DNA from: Mytilus trossulus
Taxonomy: Eukaryota
Reading direction: 5' to 3'
Assembly: GCF_036588685.1 (NCBI RefSeq)
Contig: NC_086376.1
Span: 83,265,014 to 83,329,013 of the forward strand
Length of the DNA stretch: 64,000 nt
Under the pieces are notes generated by a model. That model was not told where the DNA came from and did not search any database. It saw only the letters and a program-made list of their open reading frames with translations. Shown piece after piece: positions 3,578-64,000 of the stretch. The position numbers and the translations under genes were made by a program. Every line of letters starts with the position of its first letter. Within the stretch, counting starts at the first letter, position 1.

Positions 3578-4250
3578 CTAAGGTTGAAAGGAGTCGAAGA
3601 TAATTATGAAAGACAAAAAGAGAAGATGAGAAAAGAAAAAGATGCTCACATCATGTCACTAGAAGAAAGGAACGAAAAATTAGACGAAAAAATTGGCACG
3701 CAAACCGATAAAATTAGGCAGTTAGATGACGCCAACGAAGAAAAAGCGGATACACTGAAACAAATGAAACGACAAGAAGCCGATTTAATTGACGCCATAA
3801 TAACGCTCGAAGGAAAACTGAAAAAATCTGAAGACATTAATGTAGACCTAAAAGAACAAGTTAAAATTTTGCAGAAAGAACTAGACAAATTGAAAGAGAA
3901 AATTGAAATCATGCAGTTAGACGAACCTAACAATAAAGTTGAAAACAGATTACAGACTATTCAGGACCAACAGAGTTCAGTTGGAAGAAATGATAAATGG
4001 TTTTAAAGTAATGCAGAATCAGATTGCTGCTATGACAAACGATAAAAAGAAGTCTACACCGCGAACCGTAAATATCAAAGATAACCAGAATGTTCAACTA
4101 GCGGTAAACACGCAAACTGCATATGGTAGAACCACGTTTGTGCCTCCATTATCGCCTCAATTCAAAAATGAGAATCGACAACAGAATATTGGAAGCCGAT
4201 TTGGTTTTGGGAAACAAAAGATTAGAAAGACTAGTCCTAGAGAGAAATAA
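3578..4250 (+). CDS. Intronless coiled-coil protein ORF(s): 3584-4006 (heptad-rich, K/E-rich) continuing after a 1-nt frame change into 3939-4250; possible exon, retrocopy or pseudogene
   Basis: The two overlapping ORFs read as one continuous coiled-coil (..NRLQTIQDQQ | VQLEEMINGFKVMQNQIAAM..) if one base is added or removed near 3975-3985. The first ORF starts at a TTG just after a stop, preceded by an acceptor-like ttttttaag (3569-3577). I recognise no specific family. Confidence 0.3.
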
Positions 4251-5709
4251 TATATATTGTTGAATGAAATATATTTTTTGAAGTGCCTTTACTTTAACGT
4301 GTATTTTCATTGATTTCACGTGAGTTGTGCACTAATAAGAATAAAAGGCTTTACTACAAAAACCAGAACCTCTATTCAATTAGATAAAGTATTAAAAAAT
4401 CTCGGCTTCCCAATAGGGGACTAACACGAATTGCCAGCTGACTTTAAAGTGCAAACATTAGGGAAGACTCTTTGAAAGAAAATGCCTGTATAACCTAACA
4501 TGGACATTCCGCTTGTATGTGACGAGAAAAGGAATCTTTAAATTTTGAAATTAAAACAATTTTAACATTTAATTACGGTATTTTGAGAAGAATTATCTTA
4601 TAATTGTTTTTTAACCAGTATGATTAAATTTGCCGCGCTACCAATTTGGTTCTTTGAAAACCCTGCGCACCTCGTATAGTTTTCGGATCGAAACCACGCT
4701 TTACGTTTACATTCAACTTTCTGGTTGCGGGATGTTATACATATTTTTTGTCACCAATTGAAATAGGTTGGAAGGACTGTGACAATAAACAAATTTTTTC
4801 AGGTATAATCAGCTAAAATACAAGTGAATCAACGTTTACAGCTATGCCAATAGAAGAACAGTGTAAGACGTGCGTGTTTGTTTTGGTTTTTTTTTTGTAT
4901 TTTCAAGACCGAAAACATGCAAGTATCAAATACAATCCATCACTCTGTGATAAAAAAAAATATACTGGGATAAGCTGAATGGTGAAAGGTGGGAGATTTT
5001 TTTTAACGCCTTTGTTGAACTCAAGTAGTATTGTTATCATTATTTAATGCCGATATTTCATAATGGATACGTTTTATCAAAGAACTTAATGGCACCATCC
5101 AGTTTGTGGACTTGAAGGTAATCAAATCTTGAAAAATGGATAAACCTCTATCCGGAGACGCCGGTTGTAACAACAGTCATTTCTTTTATGGAACAAACAT
5201 TTAAACATCAAGGAGAAAGGAACTGTTTTTCATCGGTTCTTCGTTGGATACACTTTTTTGAAAACAAAACAGTTATCGTGTTAACCATCAATATGACGAA
5301 ACATGCATTCGGAAGAAATGATCTTCGAAATACAAGTGGTTAATGAGTTAATTAAGGGGCCTATTTTGATTATCCGCGATGTGCAATGATCTTCGATACT
5401 CAAGAAAGATGGTTGCGTGATTGTAAGAGTATGGTAACTTATAAAGTGAGCTCATTTATCAGTAAAATACAGTAATCGGATGGAATGTTATAGTCGATAT
5501 AGTTGAAATAGATGTAGAGCGATTAAAAAGAAAGATTTGCGCTCAAAATACATCTATACCATATCGTACATGCATGCAGACATATATTCAATTTTATAAG
5601 GAGTATGCGTTGGAGTCGGATCCATTTGATAAAAAACTTTATGTTGCTTATTCATGGGATAAATAGCTAAGTCTATACATATATATAATTCCATACGTTC
5701 CTACATAGA

Positions 5710-6035
5710 TAAAGGAAGATGTGGTGTGAGTGCCAATGAGACAACTCTCCATCAAAATAACAATTTAAAAAGTAAACCATTATAGGTTAAAGTACGGCCT
5801 TCAACACGGTGCCTTGGCTCACACCGAACAACAAGCTATAAAGGGCCCCAAAATTACTAGTATAAAACCATTCAAACGGGAAAACCAACGGTCTAATCTA
5901 TATAAACAAAACGAGAAACGAGAAACACGTATATATTACATAAACAAACGACAACTACTGTACATCAGATTCCTGACTTAGGACAGGTGCAAACATTTGC
6001 AGCGGGATTAAACGTTTTAATGGATCCAAACCTTC
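5710..6035 (-). mobile_element. SINE-like repeat, same family, inverted orientation relative to the 19790-20065 copy
   Basis: Reverse complement of the 19735-20065 sequence almost base-for-base (gaagatgtggtgtgagtgccaatgagacaactctccatc ... ccattaaaacgtttaatcccgctgc). Confidence 0.75.
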
Positions 6036-8099
6036 TCCTTTTTTCTGAAACAATAGCATAACATCACAACATAGAAAAATGTACATATTATTTATTTTCC
6101 TCACTATGCAGGAATAAGAAACACTTTTAAAACTGAAAATAACATTTGATATAGTTTATGCGTCCGAAGCGCTTTTCTAGATTGACTTTCATTCGGACCG
6201 CCAAAACCAAATTTATGAAAGTCACGGACATCTAAGAACCGAAACATGTGAAGGTTAGGATCAAATACAAACAATTTCATGGAGAAATGTATAAATTATA
6301 TGGAAGTAACAGTGGCTTTCAGGTAACAATAATAATAATAAAAAAAGTGACCACAAGTAATTGTGTAATGTTGACTGTAGATCATTAATGTCCATGTGCA
6401 AAAATGAAAATCATTTTATATTTAAGACAGATTTTTATAATGAGCAATAGCCATTAACATGTTTTGGAGTGTGTTACCATGACTGGCGAACTGTTGGTCA
6501 ATAGTGTGCACATTTGTCTGGTGTTATAACTGAATACAATAAAGCTGTGTTTATTCTTTTATAAGGCATAGCATTGGGGGACTGAAAAGAAATGTATCTT
6601 TCCAGTTGCAATACAGACAATTTCAAAATCATCGTTTTGGATCCATATTAGAATATCAGCCCTGTAAATTTCTAGGGATTCGGCACTGACCACATTTTAA
6701 TACATGAACCGAGAACTGATCTATCAGATTCTGTTTTACAAATATCAATACTTATGAAATTAGTAAAGCTTGATCTATGTTCCTTTTTGGATAATCAGAA
6801 GACACGCGTCTCCACAACAAACTGCTCAGGTAAATAAAAGAAAAACTTGATAGTAATCGTGTTTTCATGATCATAGCGAGAAAAATGTTATATACCGGGT
6901 TGTTCAAGTGTTGACCGAGTCTCATGCAAAATGTACTTAGGTCAACGCTTTTACACCCTAATGAATTTACATTTTGAACTAAAGTTTATACTGAACTGAA
7001 ATTCCAGTCAATTTTTTTTTTCAGTACCAGGATTACACGATTACACTATAATTATATTACAACCTAGTGTTTATAATTATAGAATAACTAATCGAAGAAT
7101 TCAAATAGAGAAAAATATTCAACGAGTGACCGAACGACACATTAATTCACGAATTCTCGTATTCTTTAATTAGTTATTCTTTTTATTGCATTGGCAAATT
7201 ATTTTTAAGGAAATTAATGTAAAACATGTAAGGAACTATATCTTTTTTCTACGCATTCACAATTTGATCCGCCGTTATCGACGTCTTGACAACGCCTATT
7301 GTTGTATGACGTCAGAGAGTAAAATAACCACGTTTTTAGTGAAATAACCACGTTTATTTCACATGTGAAATTATCGGTTTTATTTAACTGTGAAATCAAT
7401 GTAATTCATTGCAACCAATGTAATAATAATTATTAACTCAGTGGAAATATGGTGTTTAATATAACACCTCGCATTCACAAGAAAAAAAGATATATTTATA
7501 AAAATATTAACCAACGTAGTTATAATTTTTCTTACTTTAGACTTGCATGGCAATTCTCCTTTATAGAATCTAAATGACTGTGGGTAAATTCACTGTTGAA
7601 ATTAACGTTACGTCATTGAATGAATTTACTTTGTTTAGAACGATTTAAACCAATCACAACGTTTTGGTGTACGCTTTTTATTAGATTCTGAATGGCGAAT
7701 TCACTTGATATTTCAAATGTAACACTTTCATAGTCTTTAATCGCCAAAGTATGATAGGAATATTTATCATAAGTGCGGGCATTATTGACATGGTAATACA
7801 TTGTTTTATCAAAAATAAAAGAATGTAGGGTAAACGTGATAATGAAAACAACAATTCATTATTATTATTTGGGAAGTTAACTACATATTGATGGAACATA
7901 TTTCACTTTATTTGGATGACATATATCTTCTTTAATGCTTCATTCATTGACTAATGCTTCATAATTTTGCAAGGTAGTTAACATGTGCAAACAGACGAAC
8001 AATGTATTCTCTTTTGAAATACAAATCAGAAATATCTAACACGGCAATCTACTTGCCATATAAGCAAGCCAGGTTCAACCCATCATTTTTTTCTTGAAA

Positions 8100-18990: not shown

Positions 18991-19789
18991 ATCCATCTGC
19001 CTATATCTAATACAACTGCATACCAACAAAGCATTGGCTTATTATTAGCAGCTTTGCTTATACTGACCTAATTACAACCTTGAACATGTAAACTATGTGA
19101 AAGTCTTTAGGTCAATGGATCATGACAAGGCAGGGGACAATTTGCTAAAAGGCTTCGAGACATGTGTCAATGCTAATACAGCTGCATACACAGTATTGAT
19201 GACCTAGTAGTTCACCTAAAACTGACCTAGTCAGTAACTTAACATAGGTTGACACTGCTGACATTGACAACAGCACGCCTAAGTCTCTGTTGGTGTTTTC
19301 TAGACTAGTTTTTTGGTTTTGTCTTCGAAATTATAAATTTTGATCGTCTCTTTGGTACCTTCTTCCTCTGTTTATCCCAATACTTCGTTGATAGGTTCAC
19401 AAATATAATTATAAAAGAGCTATTGCTTTGAAAATTTTTGAGATATCATAAATAAAGGCAACAGTAGTATACTGCTGTTCAAAACTCGATAGAAAGAAAC
19501 AAATCCAGGTGATAACTAAAACTGAGGGAAACACATTAAATATGAGAGGAGAACAACGACACAACATTAAAATGTTACACACACAAAAAGAACTAAGCAT
19601 TAGACAAAATCTAATGAGAATAACAAACATAATCATACGTTTTTTGATTGAGTTAAGTCTGCCAATTGATATTTTATTGTATGTTTTTCTGTGTTGTGAT
19701 GTTATGCTATTGTTTCAGAAAAAGGGAGAAGGTTTGGGCCCATTAAAACGTTTAATCCCGCTGCAAATGTTTGCACCTGTCCTAAGTCA

Positions 19790-20065
19790 GGAATCTGATG
19801 TACAGTAGTTGTCGTTTGTTTATGTAATATATACGTGTTTCTCGTTTCTCGTTTTGTTTATATAGATTAGACCGTTGGTTTTCCCGTTTGAATGGTTTTA
19901 CACTAGTAATTTTGGGGCCCTTTATAGCTTGTTGTTCGGTGTGAGCCAAGGCTCCGTGTTGAAGGCCTTACTTTAACCTATAATGGTTTAATTTTTAAAA
20001 TTGTTATTTGGATGGAGAGTTGTCTCATTGGCACTCACACCACATCTTCCTATATCTATATAATA
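19790..20065 (+). mobile_element. SINE-like interspersed repeat (superfamily: 5' cagtagttgtcgtttgtttatgt.. / middle gggccctttatagct..gttgaaggcc / 3' ..gagagttgtctcattggcaatcacaccacatcttc), full-length copy
   Basis: The same about 260-330-bp unit recurs at least 10 times in this window in both orientations (see the other copies listed). Confidence 0.75.
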
Positions 20066-21611
20066 TTGCCTCATGCACTTTTCTCGCTTTTCAATCTTAC
20101 TTCGCAAAAATAATATCATCAAAATCCATAAACCAAATTTGCCTTTAAAAACAATTTGACCACTTAATATTTGTTTTTATTTAACTTAAATACATTGGTT
20201 GCTATCTCATTGACATTTGTCCCATCTCTCCTTTAGTCATATTTAAAGTAATAGTCAACTGTTGATATATTTATTATACTTTATTTAATACTCAGAACAT
20301 TTTAATGTGACAATAAGTATGCTGCTATAGTCAGCACTGAGCAATCTAACACACCATCCATTAATTCTGATCTATATATAAGAAAGGACAATGTAATCCC
20401 TTTGTAGAAACTGGTACCCTTACTCCAAAACAGAGTAAACCATGCTGAGTTTTTTCTCTCAGGAAAATTCATTTTTTTAAAACTGTTTTTAAATGTAGAT
20501 ACAATGAAAAGACATTTTTGAATAATGACATTAATAAAATAATCTCAAAGATATCATCTGGAGTATAGGACATAAAAGATTACATTACCCTATCTACAAG
20601 AAAATAGAAAAGTTTTACAATACAACTCTGCCATTTCATAAAAAAATCTGTTAAAATCTTGTAAATATATTTCAATTCATCAAAAACTAACAAATAACTT
20701 TGCAATGACTTTTGTTTTGCTTGATTATCAGGTGATATTTCTGTGTATCTTACAACTTTCTCTATGTAAAGACATTTCTTGACATCAATTCATCATTTTA
20801 CTACATCAAATCAAATTTACTCTTCAATTCAAATCTAAACATTTCAGTTTATTATTTACTTTATTTCTGCCTCTAAGTAATATTCATCTTTCTTGGTGTT
20901 TGGCAAGTCTATTGATAACATTTTTGGACATATTAAATACATTAAATAAAACAAAAACATAATATCTTATGGGTGTTGAACCCCTTTTTGTACCACATGT
21001 TTCTTTTTCTATATTTTTCTTATTTTGTTAAAAACATATGTGTAACAGAGCAATATATCAATTCTAGAACAGTTAATGTTTGTGGTTGTGTTTTGAAATA
21101 AATATCAGATATTTTTCCTCTTAATTATTTTGAAAACATATAAATAAGGACTTCTCAAGGTCAAACTGCTTTTATGAGAGATACAATTTAAAATATCAAA
21201 TAAATATCAGAGAGGCATAGCCAAACAAAAGTATAGTACATTCTCAAGCAAAACAAATCCAAGGCAACATTTTGTCATGGTTGTTTTTTAATTCACATAT
21301 TGTTATCCACCAACTTTAGGGAAATAAAAACCTACTCCAGTTTGCATGGCATAATTTTCATCCCATGGACGGTTTTAAATTATTAGATTGCTGATAAATG
21401 AACATAAATTAAACAATTGATAACAACATTATAATATAATTACTGAATGAAAATCTCAAGATATAATAATCCCGTCAATGTCAACTTTAAATTAACGTAG
21501 TTTCAATTATTAAAGTAAAGGCTTGTTTTGTCTTCATTTATAATATGAAAAATATAAAAAAATATGACTGTTTTTATTTCAAAAATCAGAATCCAAAGTG
21601 ATCATGTAACT

Positions 21612-27468: not shown

Positions 27469-28088
27469 CTGAAAAAGAAAGGTAAGAATATATACAAATG
27501 ACCATTTATATACAATAGTTTTTACTGTTTAAAAAATAATGTAGTCTCTCTCTGAAGTCAAGTGTTCAGGTAGGGATTTCGAATCTCCAGTCCTATTTCA
27601 GAGATATGTGATCAACCAAAATAAGAGTTATATTCTACATAAAAAATATGTATAACATCCACAGGCTTTTTCAATTAATCACATTCAAGGTCCAAAAAAC
27701 GAACTTATGAGAAATTTTGGAAATGCTTCAGAATATTCTTTTTATCTTTTTCATTAATTACCCTCATTTCACTAACCTACTTTATAGTCTATTTTTGTAA
27801 AGACAATAGCTATCATGTCAAAACCCATTATGCAACAGAAATCAATATATGGACCTGATTAATAAGTCATTTACTATGGTATATAATACATAAAGTCTGT
27901 TACTATTCCATGTAAATTAATTGGTCAGACACTGTCCAATAAATCAACTTTCTAAAGAGAAAATAAATCAGTCATAGATACAATGCACCATAGAAAATAA
28001 TAGCAAATGTCACAAATTCATTACCCTTACACATGCAGACACAAAAACCTCTTTTAATATGGCCCCTTCAATATTTTCTGGACTTTAA

Positions 28089-28338
28089 CCCGTTTCTCCA
28101 TGGAATTTTTTTGCTCACATGTATTAATGCATTGTGAAAATAAATATTTCATCAATGAAATTCCAGTCAGATGTTCTCATGAATATCCTTTTTATATGAT
28201 ATATAAACTTTATTAAGGCTGATACAGATTTTTCGTAGGTAAGACAAGATGTTTAAACTGAGGCACTACACAGGCAACAAAAGGCTTCATTATGAAATAA
28301 AGGGGTGGCCTCAAAAGGCATCATTATGGAGGCAAGGG
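28089..28338. mobile_element. Second copy of the piggyBac-like MITE (TTAA|CCCGTTTCTCCATGG ... ATGGAGGCAAGGG|TTAT)
   Basis: Collinear with the 47278-47575 copy over its whole length (ttcatcaa..ctttattaag..actgagg.actacacagg). The 5' TSD TTAA is intact; the 3' TSD has degraded to TTAT. Confidence 0.55.
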
Positions 28339-31300
28339 TTATTAACTTAAAAATATTTTGGTTTGCCCAAACCCTACCCAAAGGTTGAGACAGTGAGTAG
28401 GTAGGTAGGCATTTTTTATTTTTTTTTTCAAAAAAAGAAATTGAAGTATCAGAGGTTTCTTAGTCTTCATGCCTATTTGATTAAAAAAAACCTTCTTCAA
28501 ATCAGGACAATAAAAGAATTTGAGTAGCCAGCTTTTTTCTAGGTAGGTAGCATTTGGGCAAACAAACCTATTATTTATTTTGGCCTAATGAGAAACAGGA
28601 TTTTTTTTCTGTTCAAGCATATAATATTTGGCTGTGTTTCTAAATACAGTGTGCTTCAGACGAACTTGCTTGATTAGGAAGCAGCAAATGACAATAGTAA
28701 GGTCATTGGTTTATACATGATTCTAAACCTGGAACCCTTCACCATGCCATCTTCTGATGAAACACTTTACTTATAAGTCCTTTGTAGTATTTAGACTTGA
28801 TAGACTTGAAATGAATTAAGAGGATTGTTTCACAGTCCAATTAATAAAAAAGATCTTCTTCAATGCTAAAAGAAAATAACTTGTGTGAAAATCATCACTC
28901 AATAACGTTTTCAAGACTCGTAACAATCCCTCATAAATTGATAATACTTATTTCTTGACGTATTTCCTTTTCTGCTTAACTTCCTGTATTTGTTTGTGTG
29001 ACTTCTTTAAGATGTTTAATTCTCAGAATAAAATCTTCATTTGAAGCTAAAAGTCCTTCAAAAGACTTCAATCAAACCCTTTTTTTCTTCCTTCTTGCAT
29101 TTATTTGAATAAATTCAGAAGAAATTTGCAAATTTCACCCAAAAATTTTTATAATTTTTTTCTTTTGTATGTGAAGATCTGTCATATCAACAGACAAAAA
29201 CATCATAAGATATCTGTTATCATTTGAATACTATTAATTCAGAAATTATTGTGTGGTTTTTATTAATGCAAATAATGCTGGGTGTGTTTGCAACAAGAAC
29301 TCGCAATCAGATACATGTATATCATGATGCAGATTATCTTGCAATTGCAATAAAAAATGTTGCATTTTTGTCTTTTCTTCAAAAATCGCAACAATACCTG
29401 CACACAATATCTGTAATTACAGAAGCTCTAACCCAATAGCCCGCTGTTGCATCAATTACCTACTAATGAACTTAAGTAGTCATGTTTTACAGTAGATTTA
29501 ATTACCTGACCAGGTATCAATATAACAATTAAGAGATCATTTAATAGAATTCCTAACACTTGATAACATTTGGACAACTGCCAATATTAGTCAACTTTTA
29601 ACTTTCATTTATATACTTACTGGCCTTTGGTGAAAGAGATAATACAAATATAGTTTATTTACCAACATTCATGTGACAACTAAGGATACAATGGTTGAGA
29701 AATAAGGCTTTGAACTTATACAAAATTATTGTCTTTAATCTAGAACAGCTCTGACCGACCTTTACTCAACAGTCAAAACATCACATGGCAGAAACACTAA
29801 TCATTAGTGGAGGAAAAAAATAATATGCATACACACATCAGAAAAACCAATGTAGTGAAGAACTGATTGGAACAAACAATTGCATGATTAAATATTGTGC
29901 AATAACCATGATAAAGTAATTTTTAGATACCAGATAAAAATTAAAGATTGCATTTCAAGTTTGGTATCTCTACAAGCATGCTAATATCTTTCTTTCTTAT
30001 CCACGTAAAGTACTGGAGTACTTATAAAGACTAGGAAACATGAACTGCTCACTACACAAGGAAGGTCCTTTTTTTCTTTTTTGCACAACAAATCTTACAA
30101 TAAAAACACAATTGATAGTATTTTATGCTGAAATGTATATTTTTTCATCAGATTGTTTGTTAAAAAAAAGTTGTTGATTCATGAGGTGTTGTGCAGAATA
30201 GAATTATACTTTTTCTGCTTATGATCAAAACATGATGTGAAGGATAGAGAGGTGTATCATATCTCTGTTTGTACAAATAAAACATAATTTTTCCTATCAA
30301 GGTTCAAGCAATGGGATAAAATAACAAGGATATACATGTAACAGAGTTCAATGATTACTGCATATGATCAGAACAACAAATGGTCTAAGTCATTGCAACA
30401 GAATCTACCCCAAAAAATAAATTATCCGGTAAAACCATTATGAATACAGGACAAGGACTTCTGTTTTATAACATTTACAGTACAACAAATACATTTTCAT
30501 ATCAAACCTCAAAAGTAATTTGTTTATTCATAAGACAAATTTCTAAGGATTGTGTAATACAAAAACATTTCCCTGTACATTGTACCACAAAGTCAGGAAC
30601 CTTGTGGTTTCCATTTATTTATAAAATCCTTTAAATACAGCTTAATGTTCTGCATTTTAAGTTTTAGCCTAAATGGCAACTCTTTGGTAGCCACAAATTT
30701 TCTGAACACAAGACAAGTAAAACTTTAGACCATTAAAGTGTGGCATGTGGTACAGACTTGTCTATTGTTAAAGACTGGGAATTTTATTGGTGTTTTGTTG
30801 TTTTTCTATCTTAAAGGTTAACCTCATATACCATACAGCTATGCTGTTAATAAAAATACCCTTTTAAAATATAGACTTCTATAAACTTATAAAATAAAAA
30901 AAGATAATAAACAACAGTTCAATGACTTTGAATTTATATGTTTTGTGAAAAAAACTTTACCATGAAGTTAATTATAGTGAAATAAATTTGTATAATGTCT
31001 AGGGCCAGGCGGATCTGAAAATTTGTTTACACTTGAGGCAAAATTTTGTTTTGAATGACATAAGGTTAAATTTGCCTAATAGTGCATAACTACTGTCTAC
31101 CATGATCTACAGAAATTTAAACTGGAATTTAACATATGTAATACCTTTTCACTTAGCTTTGTTGATCAGATTATTTTTTACCAATTGCTAAAACCTGGAT
31201 TAAAATAGTTAATCTAATTACATGTACTTTAATTCAAATTCCAGAAATACCAAAAGTACAAAATCTCAATAGTTTTATCTAGGAAGGTGTATATGTTAAT

Positions 31301-33469: not shown

Positions 33470-33811
33470 ACTAAATTTGAGTTTAACTTAAACTTCCAAT
33501 GCAATTTAAGATGCATAATGCTGTTTCTATTGAATGTATTGCTTCATACAATCATTACCTCTTGAACAATTGATTCTTTGTGGATATTTTTGTACTTTTA
33601 GGGGATTAAATATGAGCTGCCAGCAATGATATGAAACAGATTTTATGCAGACTCCATTTTAATACCTTTATTCAGCAATTATTGTTGGAAATACAGAGAC
33701 AGCAAGTTTTGAATTACAGAAAGGAAGAGAAGTTTATATATCACACATAATTTTTATATTAGTTAATCAGTTTGTGGATTTACCAGTGATAATTCCAGTG
33801 GAATCTACTGG

Positions 33812-40100: not shown

Positions 40101-41265
40101 ATTTTAAATAATGTTGAGAGTTCTTGGAAGACGTGCCTCTCATCCCAAACTAAAACTGTCTACTTGTTTAGGTTCTACGAGAATTTGTGTACAAGTTTCA
40201 TAAAATTGGCATGAATCAAACCTAAATATGTATAAACAAATGGTCAAAAGGAAAACTTATAATTAATGCCCACTTTGCAGAGGAATGGAAATAGTGCTTC
40301 AGCATAAATAAAAAATGTTGGCATATCTGCATATAACTTAGTGAAAACAAGTATTTCAGGGCACAAGGTGATAAAAAGAATTGCAATCAAAAAGCACAAA
40401 AATTACCCTAAATTGTGTTCTACACTAAAAAACTGAATGCTTGCATCGTATAGTTAGTTTTAAAACTTGAGTTTTCCTAAATTTTTTAGGAATGGTCAGT
40501 ATCTGCCACATGAACTCCTCCCATTTGGAAATGTAGGTCAGTTTCTATAAATATAACAAGCGGATAAACATCTGCAACCTGAGGATTATCAACTTCAGAT
40601 ATATATCATTTTCATATTGATTCTCCTTAAGATAAAAGGAAATAAGTTGTCAATTAACATGAATGGACTAATATTCAACAGCTTGTTCAGTACACATAAA
40701 CAGTTGTAGGAAGCAAAGATTTGTTATCTGTTTTTCCATTGAATTAAATTTTCTCGCATAACTATATTATATGCAGTCACAAACTTATAATAAAACCTAA
40801 GATAGTTAAAGTGACTGAACTATTCTAATAGCGCTCAAGCTTTTAACAGTGTTGTTTATCCACAATTTGAATACTTTTCTATATTTGAATTCTTGGATAA
40901 CTTATTCTTTTTATCACATATTGACCATTGATTTTAATGGAAATAAAGTTAAAATCAAATGTATGTATGTTACACCATGAATGCATGGTTATATGTACTA
41001 GACAAAGACTGCAGAACTGGTTATTTCCAGCTAACAGAACTGGTTCTAGCTATTTATATCTCTTTAAAATTAAGAAATTTCTAAATATTGATTCATGAAA
41101 ATTATTGTATAATGAAAATTAATATTCTCTGATTTAATAATGATTACTATAATATATAGTTGTAATTTTTGTGTTTATAATGCCACTCTAAAGCACCACT
41201 ATTTGACTCTTTTGTGGCAGCCAGTTTTTATTGGTGGAGGTAGTCTGTCAAGTGCCAGAAGAAAA

Positions 41266-46965: not shown

Positions 46966-47277
46966 CTTACTCCTTTTAAGTCTTACTTTTCTGGCTTTGT
47001 TTGTTTATTGTTTATTGTTGTTTTGTTTTTAAATCTTCCCTATAGAAGTAAGATGTAAATTGTTTTAAACCGAGTGCTTTAAGTCATTAAGTGAAACAAG
47101 TGCATTACGATGACTTTGACAAACCGTTAGAATTTTAATAATGTGTGGTTTCATATATATGCACTCTATCAAATATACTTAATATCTTATTTATACCATA
47201 ATACTTCTTTGTAAAGGTATTTACATCTATTTATCATTCACTAAGGCAAACAAGTCCACAGTTTATATTTTAATTAA

Positions 47278-47575
47278 CCCTTTCCTCCATTGAATTTTTT
47301 TTTTTGCATACTTGATTCGCATAGGATTTTTTTGATAAAATGCTGAACTTATGATTTGAAGTACTAAAGCATTGTGAAAAACAACTATTTCATCAAATAA
47401 ATTTAAGTCAGATATTCCTATGATATTCCTTTTCATATTGGATACAAACTTTATTAAGTCAACTGCAGACACTTTGTAGTCGAAGTGTTTCAACTGAGGT
47501 ACTACACAGGCGTCAAAAGGCGTCATTATGGAGTAAAGGGGGTGGCGTCAAAAGGCGTCATTATGGAGGAAAGGG
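47278..47575. mobile_element. piggyBac-like MITE (about 300 bp) with TIRs CCCTTTCCTCCAT / ATGGAGGAAAGGG and flanking TTAA target-site duplication (47274-47277, 47576-47579)
   Basis: CCC...GGG termini plus a TTAA TSD are the piggyBac superfamily hallmark. The internal tandem duplication ggcgtcaaaaggcgtcattatggag is present twice. Confidence 0.6.
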
Positions 47576-48722
47576 TTAAACTTTGACTATATATCTGGAA
47601 AACATTTAAACACAACCATGTATTCTTGTAAAGAGGTACATAATGCTTTTGGGTATAAACATTCTCTCATCAACACTTGAAGAAAGGATGAATCATACAA
47701 ATTCTAAAACCTGATCTGATTAAAATATACATGAATCACAAATCTATTACCCAATAATCATCAATTCCTAGTGATTCACTTGTTTAATCTTGTGTCATCT
47801 AATCTTTTTTTTGCAATTGAAAATGAAAAAAAAATCTTTACAACGATCAATACTAAGACCTGAGTAAAATATGCGAATATTTTGAGAGATGTGGATCTCA
47901 TTCAAGCTTGTCTTCTGATGATCAGCTGATTTTTAAGGCTTGTACAGGAAATACCTTTTGTAACTGTTGAATATCTCATTACAACATCAAAAGTCTGAGT
48001 ATTTTTACCTGTCTACAGGTTTAATACTTGTTACAGGTTATTCAATGTTATAAAAATTCATTGAAGGGGGTGTGGGAAAAGAGTGATAAAAAAAAGACAG
48101 GTAGAAAAACCCAACACACTGTATTATCTGACCTTTTAACCGTGATTAAAAGTATATGTTCCAAGTCACGTACAACCCTAGTGACAGGTAAAGGGAGGGA
48201 TTGTAGAATTTAAAATTCATACCAAATATACAAATTTTAAACCCTTTTAGAGATGACTATGCTGTATTGGTTTTGTTCATTATGGAGGACATATATGGTG
48301 ACCTATTGTTGTAAACTTCTGTCATTTGAAATTGGTATCTGGTAGAAAGATGTCTCACTATCAATTTACAATTATTCTAGGGGTGGATACAACCATTTTC
48401 AAAAGGGGCCTCTCAACCCAGCATAACCATGTGTCCCCATTCAAAATTGATAAACAACCATTGGAACCGCACACCAACTTCCCCCATATAAATTAAAGAA
48501 ATCAAACCTTATGACCATCCACATATAGACAATACAATCTCTGGTTGAGGGAGTATTTGTCATGTCAATCAAATGACATGTCAATCAGTGCTTTAATCAA
48601 TAATTTGAATACACATATAATATGCATGATTAAAAAAAAAACAGGGGTCACAGTAATATGGGATCATGTTAATGTATGTAAAGTGCAAGTTAACATGAAT
48701 ATTGTTTGAAACATATTGTTAC

Positions 48723-49039: not shown

Positions 49040-49295
49040 ATCCAGTGTGAGTGGTTGTCGTTTGTTTATGTGTTACATATTTGTTTTTCGTTCATTTTTT
49101 TTTATATAAATAAGGCTGTTAGTTTTCTTGTTTGAATTGTTTTACATTATCTTATCTGGGCCTTTTATAGCTGACTATGCGGTATGGGTTTTGCTCATTG
49201 TTGAAGGCCATACGGTGACCTGTAGTTGTTAATGGCTGTGTCATTTTGGTCTCTTGTGGACAGTTGTCTCATTGGCAATAATACCACATCTTCTT
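49040..49295 (+). mobile_element. SINE-like repeat, related subfamily, full-length
   Basis: agtggttgtcgtttgtttatgtgttacatatttgtttttcgtt..gggccttttatagctgactatgcggtatggg..gttgaaggccatacggtgacctgtagttgtt..gacagttgtctcattggcaataataccacatcttc. Confidence 0.7.
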
Positions 49296-50658
49296 TTATA
49301 TATATTACAAGTTTTTTTCTTCATAAGATTTTTTGTTAAATGAGTGGCAGGTTATTTTTAATACTACATTTTGTACCTGCATAAATATGTTTTATACTAT
49401 TTTATACACAAAAGTTAATTCAGATTTATATTTTGAATGATTGTAGGTGATTAACTCTGTAATATTACTCTGCATTATGCATATATTGCTAAAGTATTAG
49501 ACTGATGTATGCCCTAGTCTTAAAGACAGGGTCATACAACAGTGCTATAACCTTGAATCCCCAGCCATCACTCTGTTACACATGAATCACTCATACAACA
49601 AGAGTGTTTTTAAATGTACATGCTACCTTAAATAACCTTGCATTCAAATCTTTAATGATCCTAGTATCCATATGTACATGTTTTGTTACTGTATACATGT
49701 ATAATACCACTACCAATGATTTAATAATTAAGAGGAGATTAAGCTTGCTGCAAGAAAATATATAAATGACCACAAACTCAAACCTAAGCTTGGAAGCATT
49801 ATCAATGTCCTCAATGTTTTAGTTGGGAATATTTATCATATCAGTAATTCTTAACAGAATTAAATATGTTTGGAAAATATCACCTTGCTCAATATCTCCT
49901 TTTATTTATACATTGTCATGATTGTAGTTATACATAAACATGCATATCTTGCACAAAATTCAAAAATCACAAGATTTATTTTATAGCATAAATATATGTA
50001 TATAAGTGTATTTGAAATGTACAGGTCTGTAATTTATATTTACAGTTTACCCTGATGTCTGAGGAAGTTGATAATTTACAAAATGTACATACAGAAGATC
50101 AAACAGAAATATGCATGTACTGGTGAGCAACTGCTGAATGTAAAACTTAGTTTAAAACCATTAAATATGTACTTTGTATTTCATTAAAAGAAGATGAATA
50201 CATCTATTAAATACAAATAAAGTGCATGTGTACTTTCAAATCTGTCTCCCATCACCTGACTGACATAAGTTCGCTATTTGAAATATAAGTCAGGCCAATG
50301 TCTATATATAATTTGGTCTTGTGCCAGTTGTGGGTGTCAATATAAGACTGACACTGTATGAAATTTGTCACCAAAGTACAATTCCATTTATAGGCAAATC
50401 TTATAATTTTGTAGTCACAAGCCTGCAAATGCAGAAATGTGTAGCCCTGCAATTATCCTAATTTAACTGTTTAGTCTGTACTGTATATATGATTATGGTG
50501 ACCCTATTGCTAATACAAATGTAGTACCTAAGAAACAGAATCACATTAAAAAACCTAACATACATATATAATCCATTGAATGAACCATGAAAATGAGGTC
50601 AAGTTCAAGACAGACATCTACCCCTTGCAATCATTCCATACTTATAATTATAATATAA

Positions 50659-50855: not shown

Positions 50856-53800
50856 ACCCTATCCAAGCTATAGAAGTTTATATAGAACTATTGTTTATAG
50901 TATAATAATATTCTAGAAATACAGTTTTACTGCAATAAACTTAACATTGAGCACTGTATGTACATGAAAATGAGGTCAACTTAAAGTTAAATGAGACCTG
51001 CTAGGTGGACATGTACACATGCACCTTACAATCATTCCATACACAAATATAGTTGACCTATTGCTAATACATTGTACATGTACTAGACCCAAAATCATAA
51101 CCTTGATCACAGATCCATGAAATCAGGTTTGTGGTCAGGAGAATTGTAATTCAACACATTCTTTTAGTTGTAAACTGAAGATTGGGTATTCTATTTTGGA
51201 AATTACTTAAAAATCAATGGAAAACAAGTCATGTGATGATGTCCAAACTTGCATATAATCATATAAAGGGACACAACTAAAGATTGGTAAATCTACATTT
51301 TATAACTCTGACAATCCCAATCCAACTCTAACTGTGTTTTGTGGTAATATAAGCATTGACATTGTGTGCAGGTGTCATAACATCTGGTTGAAGCAATCTA
51401 AAGTTACTTAGAGAACAGAAACAAATTATGAGACATACATGTATGCATGATATGCAGGGAATCTTCACAGCAGCAGGGTCATAAAAAATTGATGCGATTT
51501 AAAAAAAAAATGAAAAAAATAATCTGTGCTGAATACATATATGCTACTAATGAACATGTAGTTGTGTAATGTTGACAAAAAAGGTACCAATGCACACCTT
51601 TTTGCCTTTAAAACTGAACTTGTAGATGCACATGTATACATGTATCATGTGTATATATGTATAGATTTTTATGACAGACAAGAGATACAGCACAACTGTT
51701 ATCCCAGTTTGTCGTATATCTAGATCTGCTTTAATTCGGTAACTTTGTCATGAATTTGATGCAAGGATGTCAGATGTCAAATGAATAAATTTTGTGTTCA
51801 AGGTACATGTATGACATCATGACCGTGACATGAAAAATGCATACATAGTTCTTTTGACACAACAAAAGTTGTAAACATTCTGCCATTTAATTGTGAAATT
51901 TCAAATCAAAATCAAACATATATATCAGAAATGTCAAAAGATTTATTTGGAAAAAGAATTTAAATTTACTTACAACCATGACAACATATACACCGGTACA
52001 GTATATTAGATTTATCATATTTGTATTTAAATGTATGTGACCATGCTTATAGCCACAAGCAAAGCTTTCAAAACTCTCTTCAATGTCTCATGATGAAGTT
52101 AATTAACAAATTCTAGTGGAAAAGTAATTTTCGCACATTGGGGTTAGAAAAAAATCATTAACTGCATTTGGGCAAGACAGAAAACAACTCTCTTCACAAA
52201 ATGATCAACATCACGTTTATATCACCCAAGGTTAGGATTGTGCAGAAAGTTTATTGACCGCTGCAATTGAAAGAAGGCAAATGCTACACTGAATCTTCAT
52301 TATAATCGATACAGAAGACATGAATTAACCCATTGACTGAAAACTGACCGGCCAATGAACTCTTTACCTTTTGTAATTCTACAGACTGGGGATGCCCTTA
52401 AAATTGTCATTTATACATGTAATCATCTATGCACACACACACAATTGTAAAGTCAAATGAAAATTTACCATTCTCAAACAATTAATTTATAATACTTCAA
52501 CAATATCAATTTCACAAAATATGGATAAGCTAAGATTTAAGACTTCAGCTACTGTCAGAGTTACATTCACATTGAACTTGAAGGTACATTAATTCACTGA
52601 GTGAGAGTATATACATGTATATATATAAGTTTTATCAATGCTACACTGCACAGCTTTCGTGTCAAACAAGGACAAATCACAGGTTACTGTCCTCAGAGAC
52701 AAATATGTTTTCTTTCCACATGTATTGCTTTACATTTACATTTCTAACCATCCCTTCACCTTAAAAGTTTTAATCGTTTTCACTGCATGCTCTCTGAGAG
52801 GATCAACATAATCTGTTGAGTCATTGCTTCACACATTTTCTGCAATCAACCTTTCCTTTTTTTTTTCTCTTTTATATAATTTGAAAGCCAGCTTTGAAAT
52901 TGTCAGAAACCTGGTGGAGATGGGCTTGTCCTTTGTAATCTAAATCATTGATGGATGTACAAAAATGTATACAATGAATGAAATGAATATAGTACCAGTT
53001 GAACCTGGACTGTAATAAATCATTCAATACAAGGATGAAGAACAGCACTAGTTTAAAAAAAAAAAAAAAAGTAAAAAAAAAAAAGAACAGTGCTACACCT
53101 AATGATGTACAATTGCAAAAGTTACATGTAACAGAAAAACACATACATTAAGTTGCAGTGCCGTACATGGACATTGACATTTACACGGAAAAAAGTTGAA
53201 CATATAATTTTCTTATCGTATTCCTTACTTCGGAAACAAACTTTTCTTTTCAAAATCAGATCTGACACATAATTTATATTTTTAAAGTTAAGGTGGTACC
53301 TAACACTACAGGGAGATAAGTCTATAAAGTCATCTATAAGTTTTAATTATATTGTGTTGTAAAAGGAATATTAAGCTTATCAATGATCAAAATTGGTGTT
53401 GGTCAAACTGCTATATATATATATATAACCAGTGTATTTTTTCTGACAAAACGGTTGGTTAAAAACTTTTAATAAATGTGTGTCAAAAATCCACAAAAAA
53501 TAGGGCCAGTTGGATTGGTTGTAATCAAAATTTATACTTAATTATGATATTGTAAATTGTTATATTCCAATGATCTCCGACTTATCTCTTGATTGCTATG
53601 TAATTATAGACTATAGGTCCCTTCAGGGCTCCAGAATTCTTGAGTTAGGTTGGTAAAATCACAAGTATTTTTTGTATACCTATATATATATATTAAGTTT
53701 CATGTACTAATACGTTTGTAGCACCTGGTAACTATTGATTTTGTTCTATAACAAATGTACCATGGTAACAAATAAATAATAATCATGATAATAATAGTAC

Positions 53801-54157
53801 TTAATAAATATTATCTGAAAAAGAAATATTTACACATAAATCTCTCTACAAAGAAAAATCGTTCAACACACTTCATTTTCTCAGATACATGTACATGCAT
53901 GTGCATGAGCATTAAAGGTAAATACAACTGACCAAAACAAATTGACCTTGGCCTCCTAATTTTACGTTGTCTAATATAATGGCCTGAGACAAGTGCTCCC
54001 AACAAATATTTCCACACCCCTGGTACTATACACTTTCATGGTGAGAACCCTGTAAACCTAAAAAAATTCATTACTCAATTGTTGATAAGATCTGAGTAAA
54101 GAAAAGACAGTCAAGATACAAATGTAGCACCAATGCCACTTAAACTATCATACTCAC

Positions 54158-55072
54158 CAACTAAAACATTGTCATGTACCACTTCAAAGGAGTATATTTT
54201 ACGATACCACGTGTGTCGCAGATCATTCATTTCAATCAGATCATTGTCCCACACAAGTTCTACACGGAACAATTCGGGCTCTGTCACTGGTTCATCAAAC
54301 TGAACAATAACTTTGTCTACAATGCCAAATCCAACTGCATCTATTGCATCTAATTTCATTTTAGGCAATGGTGGGTTAAACATCCTATCACATGCAGCTT
54401 TTAAAACACCTAGTGAAACAGTACATATTACGTGATTTGCATAGAATTTTTCACCGTTTTCACATTCAACACAACATTCATAAACATTTTTTTCTGGATC
54501 TGGAAATTGTCTATTCCATCGTATACATTTGACTGGATGATTGAGTAAAATATTTTCCTTTGGGATACTACTTTTTAGGATTTCTAAAACTGCAGTAAAA
54601 CCGGGTGGGATTGTATAATGAACACCTGGTAGTTCTTCATAACTTCCAAACTCACTCAAAGAAACCTCTGACAATGAATCACAGCCAGATATACAACACT
54701 CTAGCCTTTTTCGCTGATCAAATAACAATTCTCTAATATGACGGTCACTATTTGTATATCGTTCCAAAGTGTCTTCATATTCACGTTCCAGAAATGCCCC
54801 AACACTATCATTTTCTTCCATTGTGGGTATACCACTTTGATAAAAATCCTCTGCTTGCATAATTAGTTGCCCATAGTTCAAATTAACTTGATTGACTATT
54901 TTTTCAGTTACTTCCTCTCCGTTTTCCATTTTAAAGGAAGTTTTATTACGAAGACCTTTATTGCCATGTCTCAATTCTAGCAAATTATTGTCATCAGCAA
55001 TTTTAAAAATTGGGTTTCTTTCTATGCCATGTATCCAATTGGCCCCCATTTCTGCTTTATGGCCTTCGGCAT
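54158..55072 (-). CDS. Polyamine oxidase (SMOX/PAOX-like), coding exon 2 (915 nt; ..DAEGHKAEMGANWIHGIERNPIFK ... HVICTVSLGVLK ... WYRKIYSFEVVHDNVLV)
   Basis: ORF 54111..55049 (minus) carries PAO/SMOX hallmarks: GANWIHG, SEVSLSEFG..ELPG.HY.IP.GF, H-V-I-x-T-V-S-L-G-V-L-K and WYRKI. Acceptor tttttcag| at plus 55073-55075; donor G|GTGAGT at plus 54152-54157. Phase is consistent with exon 1 (1+2) and exon 3 (1+2). Collinear with human SMOX as I recall it. Confidence 0.85.
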
Positions 55073-57059: not shown

Positions 57060-57290
57060 AAATAAGTGTTACATATTTGTTTTTCGTTTATTTTTTGTAC
57101 AATTAATGCCGTTAGTTTTCTCATTTGAATTGTTTTACATTGCGTTTCGGGGCCTTCTATAGCTGACTATGCGGTATGGGCTTTGCTCATTGTTGAAGGC
57201 CATACAGTGACTTACAGTTGTTAATTTCTCTTAGTGAGAGTTGCCTTATTAGCAATCTTACCACATCTTCTTTTTTAATTATACTTAACT
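57060..57290 (+). mobile_element. SINE-like repeat, related subfamily
   Basis: Near-identical to the 49040 copy (gttacatatttgtttttcgttt..ctatagctgactatgcggtatgggctttgctcattgttgaaggccatacagtgac..ccacatcttc). Confidence 0.7.
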
Positions 57291-58360
57291 AGTAATATAT
57301 TTATTAAATTTTGTAAAATGAACAGGGGCGGATCCAGCTGGCGATGATTTAGAGACCGTTTAACTTAAGCGTCAAACTACTTTTAACGCCGTTTCCATTC
57401 ACATTGTTAACGTCATCATATCTTCTGTTAACGTTGTGCTTTTTTTATGTACATGTATCATGTTACTATATTGAGTTGAGATTATACGATCAAACAAACC
57501 AGACTTTGTTTTACTGCCTGTCCAGACTTTTAGTTAACCCATCCGTCATACCAGCCATTTTAAAAAGGGGGGTTCCTAACCAAGGACAAATTGGGGGTTC
57601 CAATTACATGTCCCCATTCAAATGCAGTGATCGTCCAAAAAATGGGGGGTTCCCACCCCTGGAACCCCCCTCTGGATCCGCGCCTGATGAAACAAGAGTT
57701 TTGTACACGTCAGAACCTGAAGAGAAGAAATCCAATTCCATGCAATTAGGCCCATTAAGCATTATATTATCATACATTGCAAAGCAAAGGGTGTACATGT
57801 ATGTAGTTTTGTTAATTATGCTAATTATTGATCCACAAAAAGGCCCAATGGTTCAACCTCTATTTCTTCAAATAATACCCAAATCATACAGAGAATGAAT
57901 ATAATTTTGACATAGTTTGAAAAAATTATAAAGTTGAGAAAGAGGTCCACATTCACATTTTGAAATTAAAAAATACATGTGTCCCCCAAACATTTTCTTG
58001 ATAACAAATGATTTCCTTGTGAAGCAGTATTTCCCTGTAGTAAAACTGGTTCTATTTATATATAGAAATTTGATTGGTTTGTTGCCAGACGTTCTGTACA
58101 TATGTCCTATTTTGACCTTCACACAATCATTCACAAAAATCTAAAAATGTGTCATCGAGTTCAGGCAATGTAATTTCATAAAATACAAAGACATGACCAA
58201 TCGCTAATAATAATGACAATTGAATACACTTTTAAATTATTATATTGTATTTTTACTATGATACTGGGTTACTTTCTTTTTGCTAAGGTGGCAATGTATC
58301 CAAACGAGAACTATCACGAAATGAAACCATGGCATACATTTGTACACTGGGATAACTTAC

Positions 58361-62639: not shown

Positions 62640-63270
62640 GAGAATGGAAATGGGAAATGTGTCAAAGAGACAACAACCCGACCAAATAAAAAAACAACAG
62701 CAGAAGGTCACCAACAGGTCTACAATGTAGCGAGAAATTCCCGCACCCGGAGGCGTCCTTCAGCTGGCCCCTAAACAAATATATACTAGTTCAGTGATAA
62801 TGAACGCCATACTAATTTCCAAATTGTACACAAGAAACTAAAATTTAAATAATACAAGACTAACAAAGGCCAGAGGCTCCTGACTTGTGACATGCGCAAA
62901 AATGCGGCGGGGTTAAACATGTTTGTGAGATCTCAACCCTCCCCCTATACCTCTAACCAATGTAGAAAAGTAAAAGCATAACAATACGCACATTAAAATT
63001 CAGTTCAAGAGAAGTCCGTGTCTGATGTCAGAAGATGTAACCAAAGAAAATAAACAAAATGACAATAATACATAAATAACAACAGACTACTAGCAGTTAA
63101 CTGACATGCCAGCTCCAGACTTCAATTAAACTGACTGAAAGATTATGATTTCATCATATGAACATCAGGCACAATCCTTCCCGTTAGGGGTTTAGTATCA
63201 TACCATCATAACATATATGAGAAGAACATAACTTGTGTCATGCCAACAACTGTTTTTAGAATAAATGTGT

Positions 63271-64000
63271 TTAGTTCCGACGCAAAGACCTTATCAGTGA
63301 CTCAATATTAACGCCAAAATATGCAATCTTTAATGACTTGACAACAGTATCGTAATTATATCCCTTCTTAATAAGTCTATTCAAAGGTTTTGTAAGTTTA
63401 TGAGGTGAATACTGACACCTTTGTGCTTTATAAAGAACATTTCCATAAAAAATTGGATGTGAAATACCGGAACGTATAAGAAGTCTGCATGTTGAGCTAT
63501 ATTTACGAATGATGTCTTTATACCGATGATAAAATTTAGTAAATGTTTTGACTAGTTTGTGATATCGAAAACCCTGGTGTAATAATTTTTCAGTAATACA
63601 TACATTTCTGTCGTTAAAATCTAAAACATTGTTACATACACGAGCGAATCGTACAAGTTGAGATATATAAACACCGTAAGATGGTGACAAGGGAACGTCA
63701 CCATCTAAAAACGGATAATTAACGATAGGAAATGAAAAATCATCCCTTTTAACATAAATTTTAGTATTCAGCCTTCCGTTAGTGATATAAATATCAAGAT
63801 CGAGGAAAGGGCAGTGGTCATTGTTAGTATTAGCTTTATTTAAAGTAAGTTCACCAGGATAAATTTCACTAATATACATACTGAAGTCGTCATTATTGAG
63901 AGCCAAAATATCATCCAAATATCTAAAAGTATTATTAAATTTGTTTATCAGATGTTGTTTTGATGGGTCTTTGCTTATTTTTGTCATAAATTGTAACTCA
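63271..64000 (-). CDS. Retroelement reverse-transcriptase-like ORF (C-terminal part: motif-C FRYLDDILAL plus thumb-like FLDLDIYITNGRLNTKIYVKRDDFSFPIVNYPF..SQLVRFARVC), truncated by the window end
   Basis: ORF 63271..63987 has no stop upstream before the window edge. It has a YLDD-type RT motif C followed by a conserved thumb signature. I recall this signature from an abundant invertebrate retroelement RT family, possibly Penelope-like; the family assignment is from memory and unverified. No GIY-YIG motif is seen in the tail. Confidence 0.55.
   Translation of the reverse strand, partial: ELQFMTKISKDPSKQHLINKFNNTFRYLDDILALNNDDFSMYISEIYPGELTLNKANTNNDHCPFLDLDIYITNGRLNTKIYVKRDDFSFPIVNYPFLDGDVPLSPSYGVYISQLVRFARVCNNVLDFNDRNVCITEKLLHQGFRYHKLVKTFTKFYHRYKDIIRKYSSTCRLLIRSGISHPIFYGNVLYKAQRCQYSPHKLTKPLNRLIKKGYNYDTVVKSLKIAYFGVNIESLIRSLRRN

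Follow-up and report, generated by a model that had tools for sequence, protein, structure and literature searches.

Two lineage-specific insertions of a probable non-autonomous piggyBac-superfamily element in one intron of Mytilus trossulus

The 64,000-nucleotide stretch of Mytilus trossulus DNA analysed here (contig NC_086376.1; hereafter the window, with positions counted from its first letter) contains two copies of a miniature inverted-repeat transposable element (MITE), one near 47 kb and the other near 28 kb, in a single intron of a spermine-oxidase-like gene. Both are very probably insertions of a non-autonomous MITE of the piggyBac superfamily, with 5'-CCCTTTCCTCCAT...ATGGAGGAAAGGG-3' ends and a duplicated TTAA target, a reading to which we give a probability of about 0.88. 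The element itself belongs to a well-known class and is ordinary within it; a duplicated end module and an end code common to unrelated hosts are its only, and mildly, unusual points.

The two copies and their empty sites

The 47-kb copy is 298 bp long, carries perfect 13-bp terminal inverted repeats (TIRs) and has TTAA at both sides. Counting the TTAA, its inverted repeat as reported by the repeat finder was complementary at 17/17 positions with 272 nt between the arms, and complementarity of the TIR ended after position 13. The 28-kb copy is 250 bp long, with termini CCCGTTTCTCCAT and ATGGAGGCAAGGG, TTAA as left flank and TTAT as right flank. The two copies are collinear (78% identity over 220 bp, E = 2e-44) and their flanks are unrelated to each other. 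The features are listed below, with the basis of each in brackets.

27469-48722, minus strand: intron 3 of the spermine-oxidase-like gene, hosting both MITE copies (exon splicing)
28085-28088, no strand: left-hand TTAA flanking the 28-kb copy (empty-site comparison with all five other assemblies)
28089-28338, plus strand: degenerate 250-bp copy with two mismatches per TIR and a 49-bp deletion (alignment, repeat finder)
28273-28338, plus strand: pair of 32-nt end modules in the 28-kb copy, at 28273-28304 and 28307-28338 (direct repeat, units 78% identical, period 34)
28339-28346, no strand: junction TTATTAAC, made up of TTAT as the degenerate right duplication and 4 further bp (empty-site comparison)
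28347-28585, plus strand: adjoining unrelated MITE with a GGCC terminus, followed by TAA and then TGAG (missing in other species jointly with the 28-kb copy)
47274-47277, no strand: left TTAA target-site duplication of the 47-kb copy (single TTAA at empty sites of other species)
47278-47575, plus strand: intact 298-bp MITE, antisense to the host gene (sequence, alignment to the second copy)
47278-47290, plus strand: left 13-bp TIR, CCCTTTCCTCCAT (100% complementary; identical in 5/6 full copies)
47509-47540, plus strand: inner 32-nt end module, composed of GGCGTC-AAAA-GGCGTC, ATT and the TIR-like ATGGAGTAAAGGG (direct repeat; among the most conserved parts of the family)
47544-47575, plus strand: outer 32-nt end module, which includes the right TIR at 47563-47575 (direct repeat)
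47576-47579, no strand: right TTAA target-site duplication of the 47-kb copy (empty-site comparison)

The orthologous gene with 10-kb flanks was compared from five assemblies, namely M. galloprovincialis (L001), M. californianus (L003), M. edulis (L004 and L005) and M. coruscus (L007). The window is collinear with the five loci, introns included, with identities of ~85-86% for M. edulis and M. galloprovincialis and of ~80% for M. coruscus and M. californianus, and both MITE copies are absent from the orthologous sites in all five assemblies, that is, in four other species. At the 47-kb site, the two M. edulis assemblies, M. coruscus and M. californianus read ...TATATTTTAA-TTAA-ACTTTGA..., which equals the window minus the element and one TTAA; the sequence TTTTAA-TTAA-ACTTTGA thus has a single TTAA at the target. 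The M. galloprovincialis empty site (L001 ~21182-21186) reads TTAATAA, against TTAATTAA in the four others, a 1-bp deletion exactly at the target TTAA that may stem from ordinary mutation, from an error in the assembly or from excision that left a footprint. The 28-kb site is GGACT-TTAA-TGAG in all five assemblies, showing that its original target was TTAA. Since the empty sites have a single TTAA exactly at each element, both copies are insertions into TTAA, with duplication of the target, in the M. trossulus lineage relative to the compared assemblies. The insertions are real and, as judged from their absence in the other species, fairly recent.

The location of both copies in one intron, in the same orientation, could also mean that they are not mobile at all, and arose by local duplication or are ancestral sequence deleted in the other species. 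Deletions do occur in the region, as illustrated by a third copy, found in M. galloprovincialis (L001 25365-25660, TTAA/TTAA flanks) and missing in M. edulis, M. coruscus and M. californianus: at its site in the window (~41040-41060) a deletion covers the site and ~130 bp of extra flank, and the site sequence varies among species, with no clean empty site. This explanation is nevertheless extremely improbable, considering that the flanks of the two window copies are unrelated, that a base-precise absence leaving one TTAA in two outgroup and two ingroup species would need several identical deletions, and that other copies occur with TTAA flanks in unrelated contigs.

The block missing in the other species at the 28-kb site (28089-28585) is larger than the 250-bp copy alone, as it also includes the adjoining MITE. 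This second MITE ends ...TTTTGGCC, after which TAA|TGAG is the original flank. Another copy of it was found in M. edulis (L005 ~33551-33797) with GGCC...GGCC ends and a 3-bp duplication, CAA, at a site left unoccupied in M. galloprovincialis; at its 5' end, the window copy does not match the M. edulis copy. These features suggest a Tourist/PIF-Harbinger-like element. Insertion of the two elements in either order predicts the junction GGG-TTAA-GGCCACAA-TTAAAAATA, and the observed one is GGG-TTAT-TAAC-TTAAAAATA. The junction has therefore been altered, and its TTAT is not readable as a clean duplication.

The host gene was reconstructed by splicing exons 58511-58361, 55072-54158, 48852-48723, 27468-27351 and 25593-25480 into a 475-aa protein, which was identical over 475/475 residues to XP_063435007.1, annotated as spermine oxidase-like [Mytilus trossulus]. 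The corresponding identities in other species were 472/475 in M. galloprovincialis, 468/475 in M. edulis, 464/475 in M. californianus and 463/475 in M. coruscus, so that the window is assigned to M. trossulus. A large exon-like open reading frame (ORF) at 54111-55049 on the minus strand encodes an amine oxidase whose closest named relatives are Mytilus SMOX and polyamine oxidase (PAO) proteins. Both MITE copies lie in antisense orientation to the gene, with ~1.15 kb between the 47-kb copy and exon 3 and 621 bp between the 28-kb copy and exon 4; they are most likely neutral intronic passengers.

Two further ORFs lie outside the polyamine-oxidase gene: a 238-aa ORF at 63271-63987 (minus strand) without a Pfam match, and a 140-aa coiled-coil-like ORF at 3584-4006 (plus strand) with a weak CCDC144C match below the family cut-off. 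Among the PAO-like proteins, the annotated isoform X1 of the gastropod Babylonia areolata (P0031) has a piggyBac transposase segment (PF13843) at its C-terminus; it is probably a chimeric gene model, with a piggyBac copy inside the gene or close to it.

A previous sequence-only reading of the window had described the element at 47274-47579, with TTAA on both sides, 13-bp TIRs and CCC/GGG termini, and the present data agree with it, its coordinates counting the TTAA duplications. It had also recognised the 28-kb copy, with its TTAA and TTAT flanks, as collinear, and had placed both copies within introns of the PAO gene; the alignment and the spliced exons bear this out, the two copies being located in the single intron 3. 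Its proposal that a 25-bp block is tandemly repeated in the 47-kb copy and single in the 28-kb copy was wrong, since both copies carry the duplication and its unit is 32 nt. The size gap between the copies corresponds instead to 49 bp deleted from the 28-kb copy near its 5' end, a deletion private to it because every other full copy has the segment.

Family members and superfamily assignment

The two 32-nt modules of the 47-kb copy are 97% identical with a period of 35. The motif GGCGTCA occurs four times in the whole window, always inside these modules, and the CpGs of all four GGCGTC motifs are preserved, while they are largely lost in decayed copies such as L132 and the 28-kb copy, the latter having none of the four left. 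For this reason the 47-kb copy looks young, and it is intact; the 28-kb copy is decayed or else derives from a divergent subfamily. The 47-kb copy has no transposase coding capacity, its only ORF (87 aa, minus strand) having as database relatives only ORFs of other copies and no matching Pfam family. No Rfam match was found in 27000-49000. Folded as single-stranded DNA, the element pairs at its tips and otherwise forms only small local stems (z = -2.96), which ruled out a long-hairpin or palindromic MITE.

The 87-aa ORF served as a probe against the protein collection, since gene callers may call similar spurious ORFs elsewhere. Five proteins were retrieved, all of them from ENA metagenome assemblies. 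The copies were thus found through internal sequence and were not chosen for their TTAA flanks. The copies in ENA contigs, including one (L016) recovered by its end sequence, are the following.

L011: full copy with 98% identity to the 47-kb copy
L012: full copy, in which the end module is single
L013: 5'-truncated copy
L014: full copy
L016: partial copy
L132: copy cut by the contig end

Family copies are 250-298 bp long, with pairwise identities of 77%-98%, implying that several subfamilies exist. Conservation is highest in the left 20 bp (0.88 mean pairwise identity) and in the right-hand region formed by the inner end module with the stretch immediately preceding it (0.84-0.93), while the least conserved stretches are element positions 40-80 and 190-205. 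TTAA is the left flank in 6/6 copies and the right flank in 6/8, the other two being TTAT, for a total of 12/14, compared with a background of 1.16% of window tetramers. All six full left ends start with CCC, five as CCCTTT and the 28-kb copy as CCCGTT, and seven of the eight right ends finish in GGG, the exception being L013, with a mutated GGT.

Within the window, a search with the 17-mer formed by TTAA and the TIR (up to three mismatches) gave four matches, which are exactly the four ends of the two copies; 0.13 were expected, and 0/100 shuffles reached four. A 13-nt match at 48277-48289 was discarded as chance, as no GGG-TTAA follows it, and no further copy or fragment of the MITE was found inside the 64 kb. 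Extrapolated very roughly, the three copies seen in ~360 kb of Mytilus sequence would correspond to some 10^4 copies in each genome.

Other repeats were observed in these sequences. A different interspersed repeat of ~260-400 bp has at least five occurrences in the window, covering both orientations (2274-2577, 5702-6073, 19649-20062, 49050-49306 and 57063-57322) and many times in the orthologous loci of other Mytilus species. Window positions 50885-51143 match about a dozen places in the M. californianus locus, mostly within ~3 kb (L003 18009-21061), a pattern that suggests a tandem, possibly satellite-like, expansion in the M. californianus intron. Another repeat, 85% identical, is common to L016 1-220 and window 62765-62966.

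A filled site of the form xTTAA[CCC..GGG]TTAAy and an empty site xTTAAy can be parsed as the duplication of either 4 bp (TTAA) or 2 bp (TA); in the latter case the copies would belong to a Stowaway-like Tc1/mariner element with A-CCC...GGG-T termini, the outer T and A being coincidental flank. The outermost bases should then vary among copies, but they are T in 6/6 left flanks and A in 6/8 right flanks, and a full TTAA is found at 10/15 far ends of the related-TIR families described below. ACCC termini are not known to be typical of Tc1/mariner, and taken together these data make a Tc1/mariner origin highly improbable.

The documented TTAA-specific eukaryotic superfamilies are two, piggyBac and Kolobok; a Sola3 alternative was dropped, as no literature linking Sola3 to TTAA was found. 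A Kolobok-superfamily MITE similar to the T2-MITEs of Xenopus would agree with the TTAA duplication confirmed at the empty sites, and Kolobok elements are, among molluscs, found almost exclusively in bivalves (PMC10294476), in which the KolobokP lineage is especially rich (PMC9587614). Kolobok termini are 5'-RR...YY-3', as in the AGGRR of T2-MITEs (PMC9587614, PMC6004289), whereas those of the mussel family are CC...GG, starting CCC and ending GGG except in L013. The termini exclude Kolobok on this rule, and we consider this origin very unlikely.

The hallmarks of piggyBac elements are a CC[C/T]T terminal motif, TIRs of 12-19 bp and TTAA duplications (PMC2872659), CCCTT being the commonest 5' motif (PMC10813416). 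The mussel family shows the TTAA duplication, CC[C/T]T...AGGG termini, a 13-bp TIR, small size without a transposase, and dispersed multiple copies with unrelated flanks. The piggyBac-type interpretation offered in the sequence-only reading is therefore supported by the empty sites, flanks, termini and TIR length. Copies devoid of TTAA flanks, or TIRs that were not conserved, had been named as observations that would speak against it; among the copies seen, TTAA flanks prevail and the ends rank among the most conserved parts.

Several points weigh against the piggyBac assignment. Mobility is read from sequence comparison, and only nine copies were seen (two in the window, one in M. galloprovincialis and six in the ENA contigs L011-L014, L016 and L132). 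Two right flanks in the family read TTAT. The 28-kb copy differs from the others by ~20% and yet occurs in the M. trossulus lineage only, which needs a divergent source copy or fast decay. The left end is without the GACGCC motif, and the analogy with the ends of Trichoplusia ni (T. ni) piggyBac presented in the next section is partial, being one of resemblance. Finally, no autonomous element with matching ends and a piggyBac transposase was detected by tblastn with T. ni piggyBac in the ~360 kb of Mytilus sequence or in 117 TIR-matching metagenome contigs.

A protein search with a T. ni piggyBac transposase sequence, 99% identical to a database entry, returned only insect relatives and no Mytilus protein among the best 120 matches listed. 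A metagenome scan with the internal 24-nt pattern TCATTATGRARTAAAGGGGN{0,1}TGGC gave 0 matches, and the TIR had no match in the supplementary sequence file of PMC10294476, which contains short interspersed nuclear element (SINE) sequences and not the bivalve class II library. In a literature search for the TIR strings, the coral CMITE paper (PMC2872659) alone was relevant.

End architecture and shared tips in other elements

Read inward, the right end of the 47-kb copy is composed of CCCTTTCCTCCAT (bp 1-13), AAT (bp 14-16), GACGCCTTTTGACGCC (bp 17-32) and ACC (bp 33-35), followed by the second, near-identical module, CCCTTTACTCCAT-AAT-GACGCCTTTTGACGCC, at bp 36-67. The left end of T. ni piggyBac is CCCTAGAAAGATA-GTC-TGCGTAAAATTGACGCATG, that is, a 13-bp TIR, a 3-bp spacer and a 19-bp site at bp 17-35 (PMC7351741). 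This 19-bp internal repeat is bound by the cysteine-rich domain at the C-terminus of the transposase, and the T. ni right end has an inner near-copy of left-end bp 7-35, which constitutes an extra site (PMC7351741). Since the 13-bp tip, the 3-bp spacer, the GACGC motif with an A/T tract and the inner second site are parallel in the two systems, the comparison suggests that the mussel element may be recognised as T. ni piggyBac ends are, which is a lead and not a demonstration.

A piggyBac (DDE_Tnp_1_7) transposase, encoded at some other place in the genome, would move the copies in trans by cut-and-paste, with TTAA hairpin intermediates. A catalytic dimer of the transposase would act on the 13-bp tips, and its DNA-binding domain probably reads the subterminal GACGCC-TTTT-GACGCC, which starts 3 bp inside the right tip. 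The tandem 32-bp end module would give one end a second, inner binding site, as in the asymmetric T. ni right end.

The family ends can be represented by the bounding strings TTAACCCTTTCCTCCAT ... ATGGAGGAAAGGGTTAA. The metagenome scan for TTAACCCTTTCCTCCAT, which comprises TTAA and the TIR, yielded the 117 contigs mentioned above, of which only L016 belongs to the Mytilus family, the rest being other MITE families or matches by chance. The same 13-bp tip occurs at one end of at least 15 other elements of 184-237 bp, whose opposite end is an inverted copy of it with up to two mismatches (L033, L036, L037, L041-L043, L056, L066, L068, L071, L073, L097, L100, L109 and L118). They form at least four groups with mutually unrelated internal sequences, and come from the contig sets JACCDL/JACCDO/JACCEC, MOXH01, Ga0210350, Ga0209567 and Ga0065183, which show no similarity to Mytilus sequence. 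The far end, which was left out of the search pattern, is flanked by TTAA in 10/15 of these elements, against a background of 1.0% in those contigs. The group of L042, L037 and L080 also has a subterminal motif, in the form CCCTTTCCTCCAT-ACA-AGCGCC-TTTG-GACGCC; in L042, 14/19 positions past the TIR match the mussel end, compared with 4-6 for random ends.

These similarities allow a tentative proposal, which we think is rather unlikely to be correct: the tip CCCTTTCCTCCAT with the subterminal RRCGCC-TTTK-GACGCC could mark one piggyBac lineage, active or recently so in Mytilus, that also moves unrelated MITE families in other eukaryotes represented by the metagenome contigs. If so, the lineage would have spread horizontally among marine invertebrates or long kept its end-recognition code, and bivalve transgenesis would gain, in its transposase, a native candidate tool. 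The tandem end module would then be a natural example of extra binding sites at one end stimulating activity, an effect reported for binding sites added to engineered T. ni piggyBac ends (PMC7351741).

Significance and comparison with known systems

The main value of the finding is for annotation, as it provides a curated Mytilus family of TTAA-specific MITEs with exact boundaries and a consensus end structure. The three insertions, each specific to its lineage (M. trossulus for two and M. galloprovincialis for one), are usable as presence/absence markers in the M. edulis species complex, and they indicate activity of a piggyBac-type transposase in these mussels since the species separated. 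The autonomous partner, if it survives intact, might serve as a host-adapted vector for bivalves, in which the piggyBac systems tried so far are heterologous only (PMC6054966). Nothing in the finding is surprising to a transposon specialist.

The coral CMITE families I-VI (PMC2872659) share with the mussel family the TTAA duplication and CCCTTT... termini, CMITE V having CCCTTTCCACCCTA and CMITE I CCCTTTCCC..., compared with CCCTTTCCTCCAT in the mussel. They are likewise short, non-coding and intronic, and pairs of filled and empty sites show their past mobility. In contrast, CMITEs are ~100 bp long, their internal core is conserved and whole elements are arrayed in tandem, whereas the mussel copies measure 250-300 bp and have a tandem 32-bp end module. 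CMITE I has a cloned partner with identical TIRs (AmiPB1), while none was found for the mussel family in the searches made.

The autonomous T. ni piggyBac, whose transpososome was resolved by cryo-electron microscopy (PMC7351741), resembles the mussel element in its TTAA target, CCC...GGG tips and 13-bp TIRs, as well as in the subterminal GACGC motif with a central A/T tract located 3 bp inside the tip, and in having one end with an extra inner copy. The mussel element differs in that it is without a transposase gene and has no other sequence in common with T. ni piggyBac. The subterminal motif is also organised differently, as a direct repeat, GACGCC-TTTT-GACGCC, at one end only in the mussel, and as a palindrome-like TGCGT...ACGCA in T. 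ni.

The Kolobok T2-MITEs of Xenopus (PMC6004289) share with the mussel family an insertion specificity for TTAA, MITE size, a high copy number and a long persistence combined with recent activity, but their termini are AGGRR (RR...YY) instead of CCC...GGG and they belong to a different transposase superfamily. The mPok MITEs of the Daphnia element Pokey (PMC4912750, PMC3849761) are, like the mussel copies, non-autonomous derivatives of the piggyBac superfamily inserted into TTAA in an invertebrate host; the likeness is drawn from their description, and Pokey differs in having a specific ribosomal DNA target and known autonomous copies.

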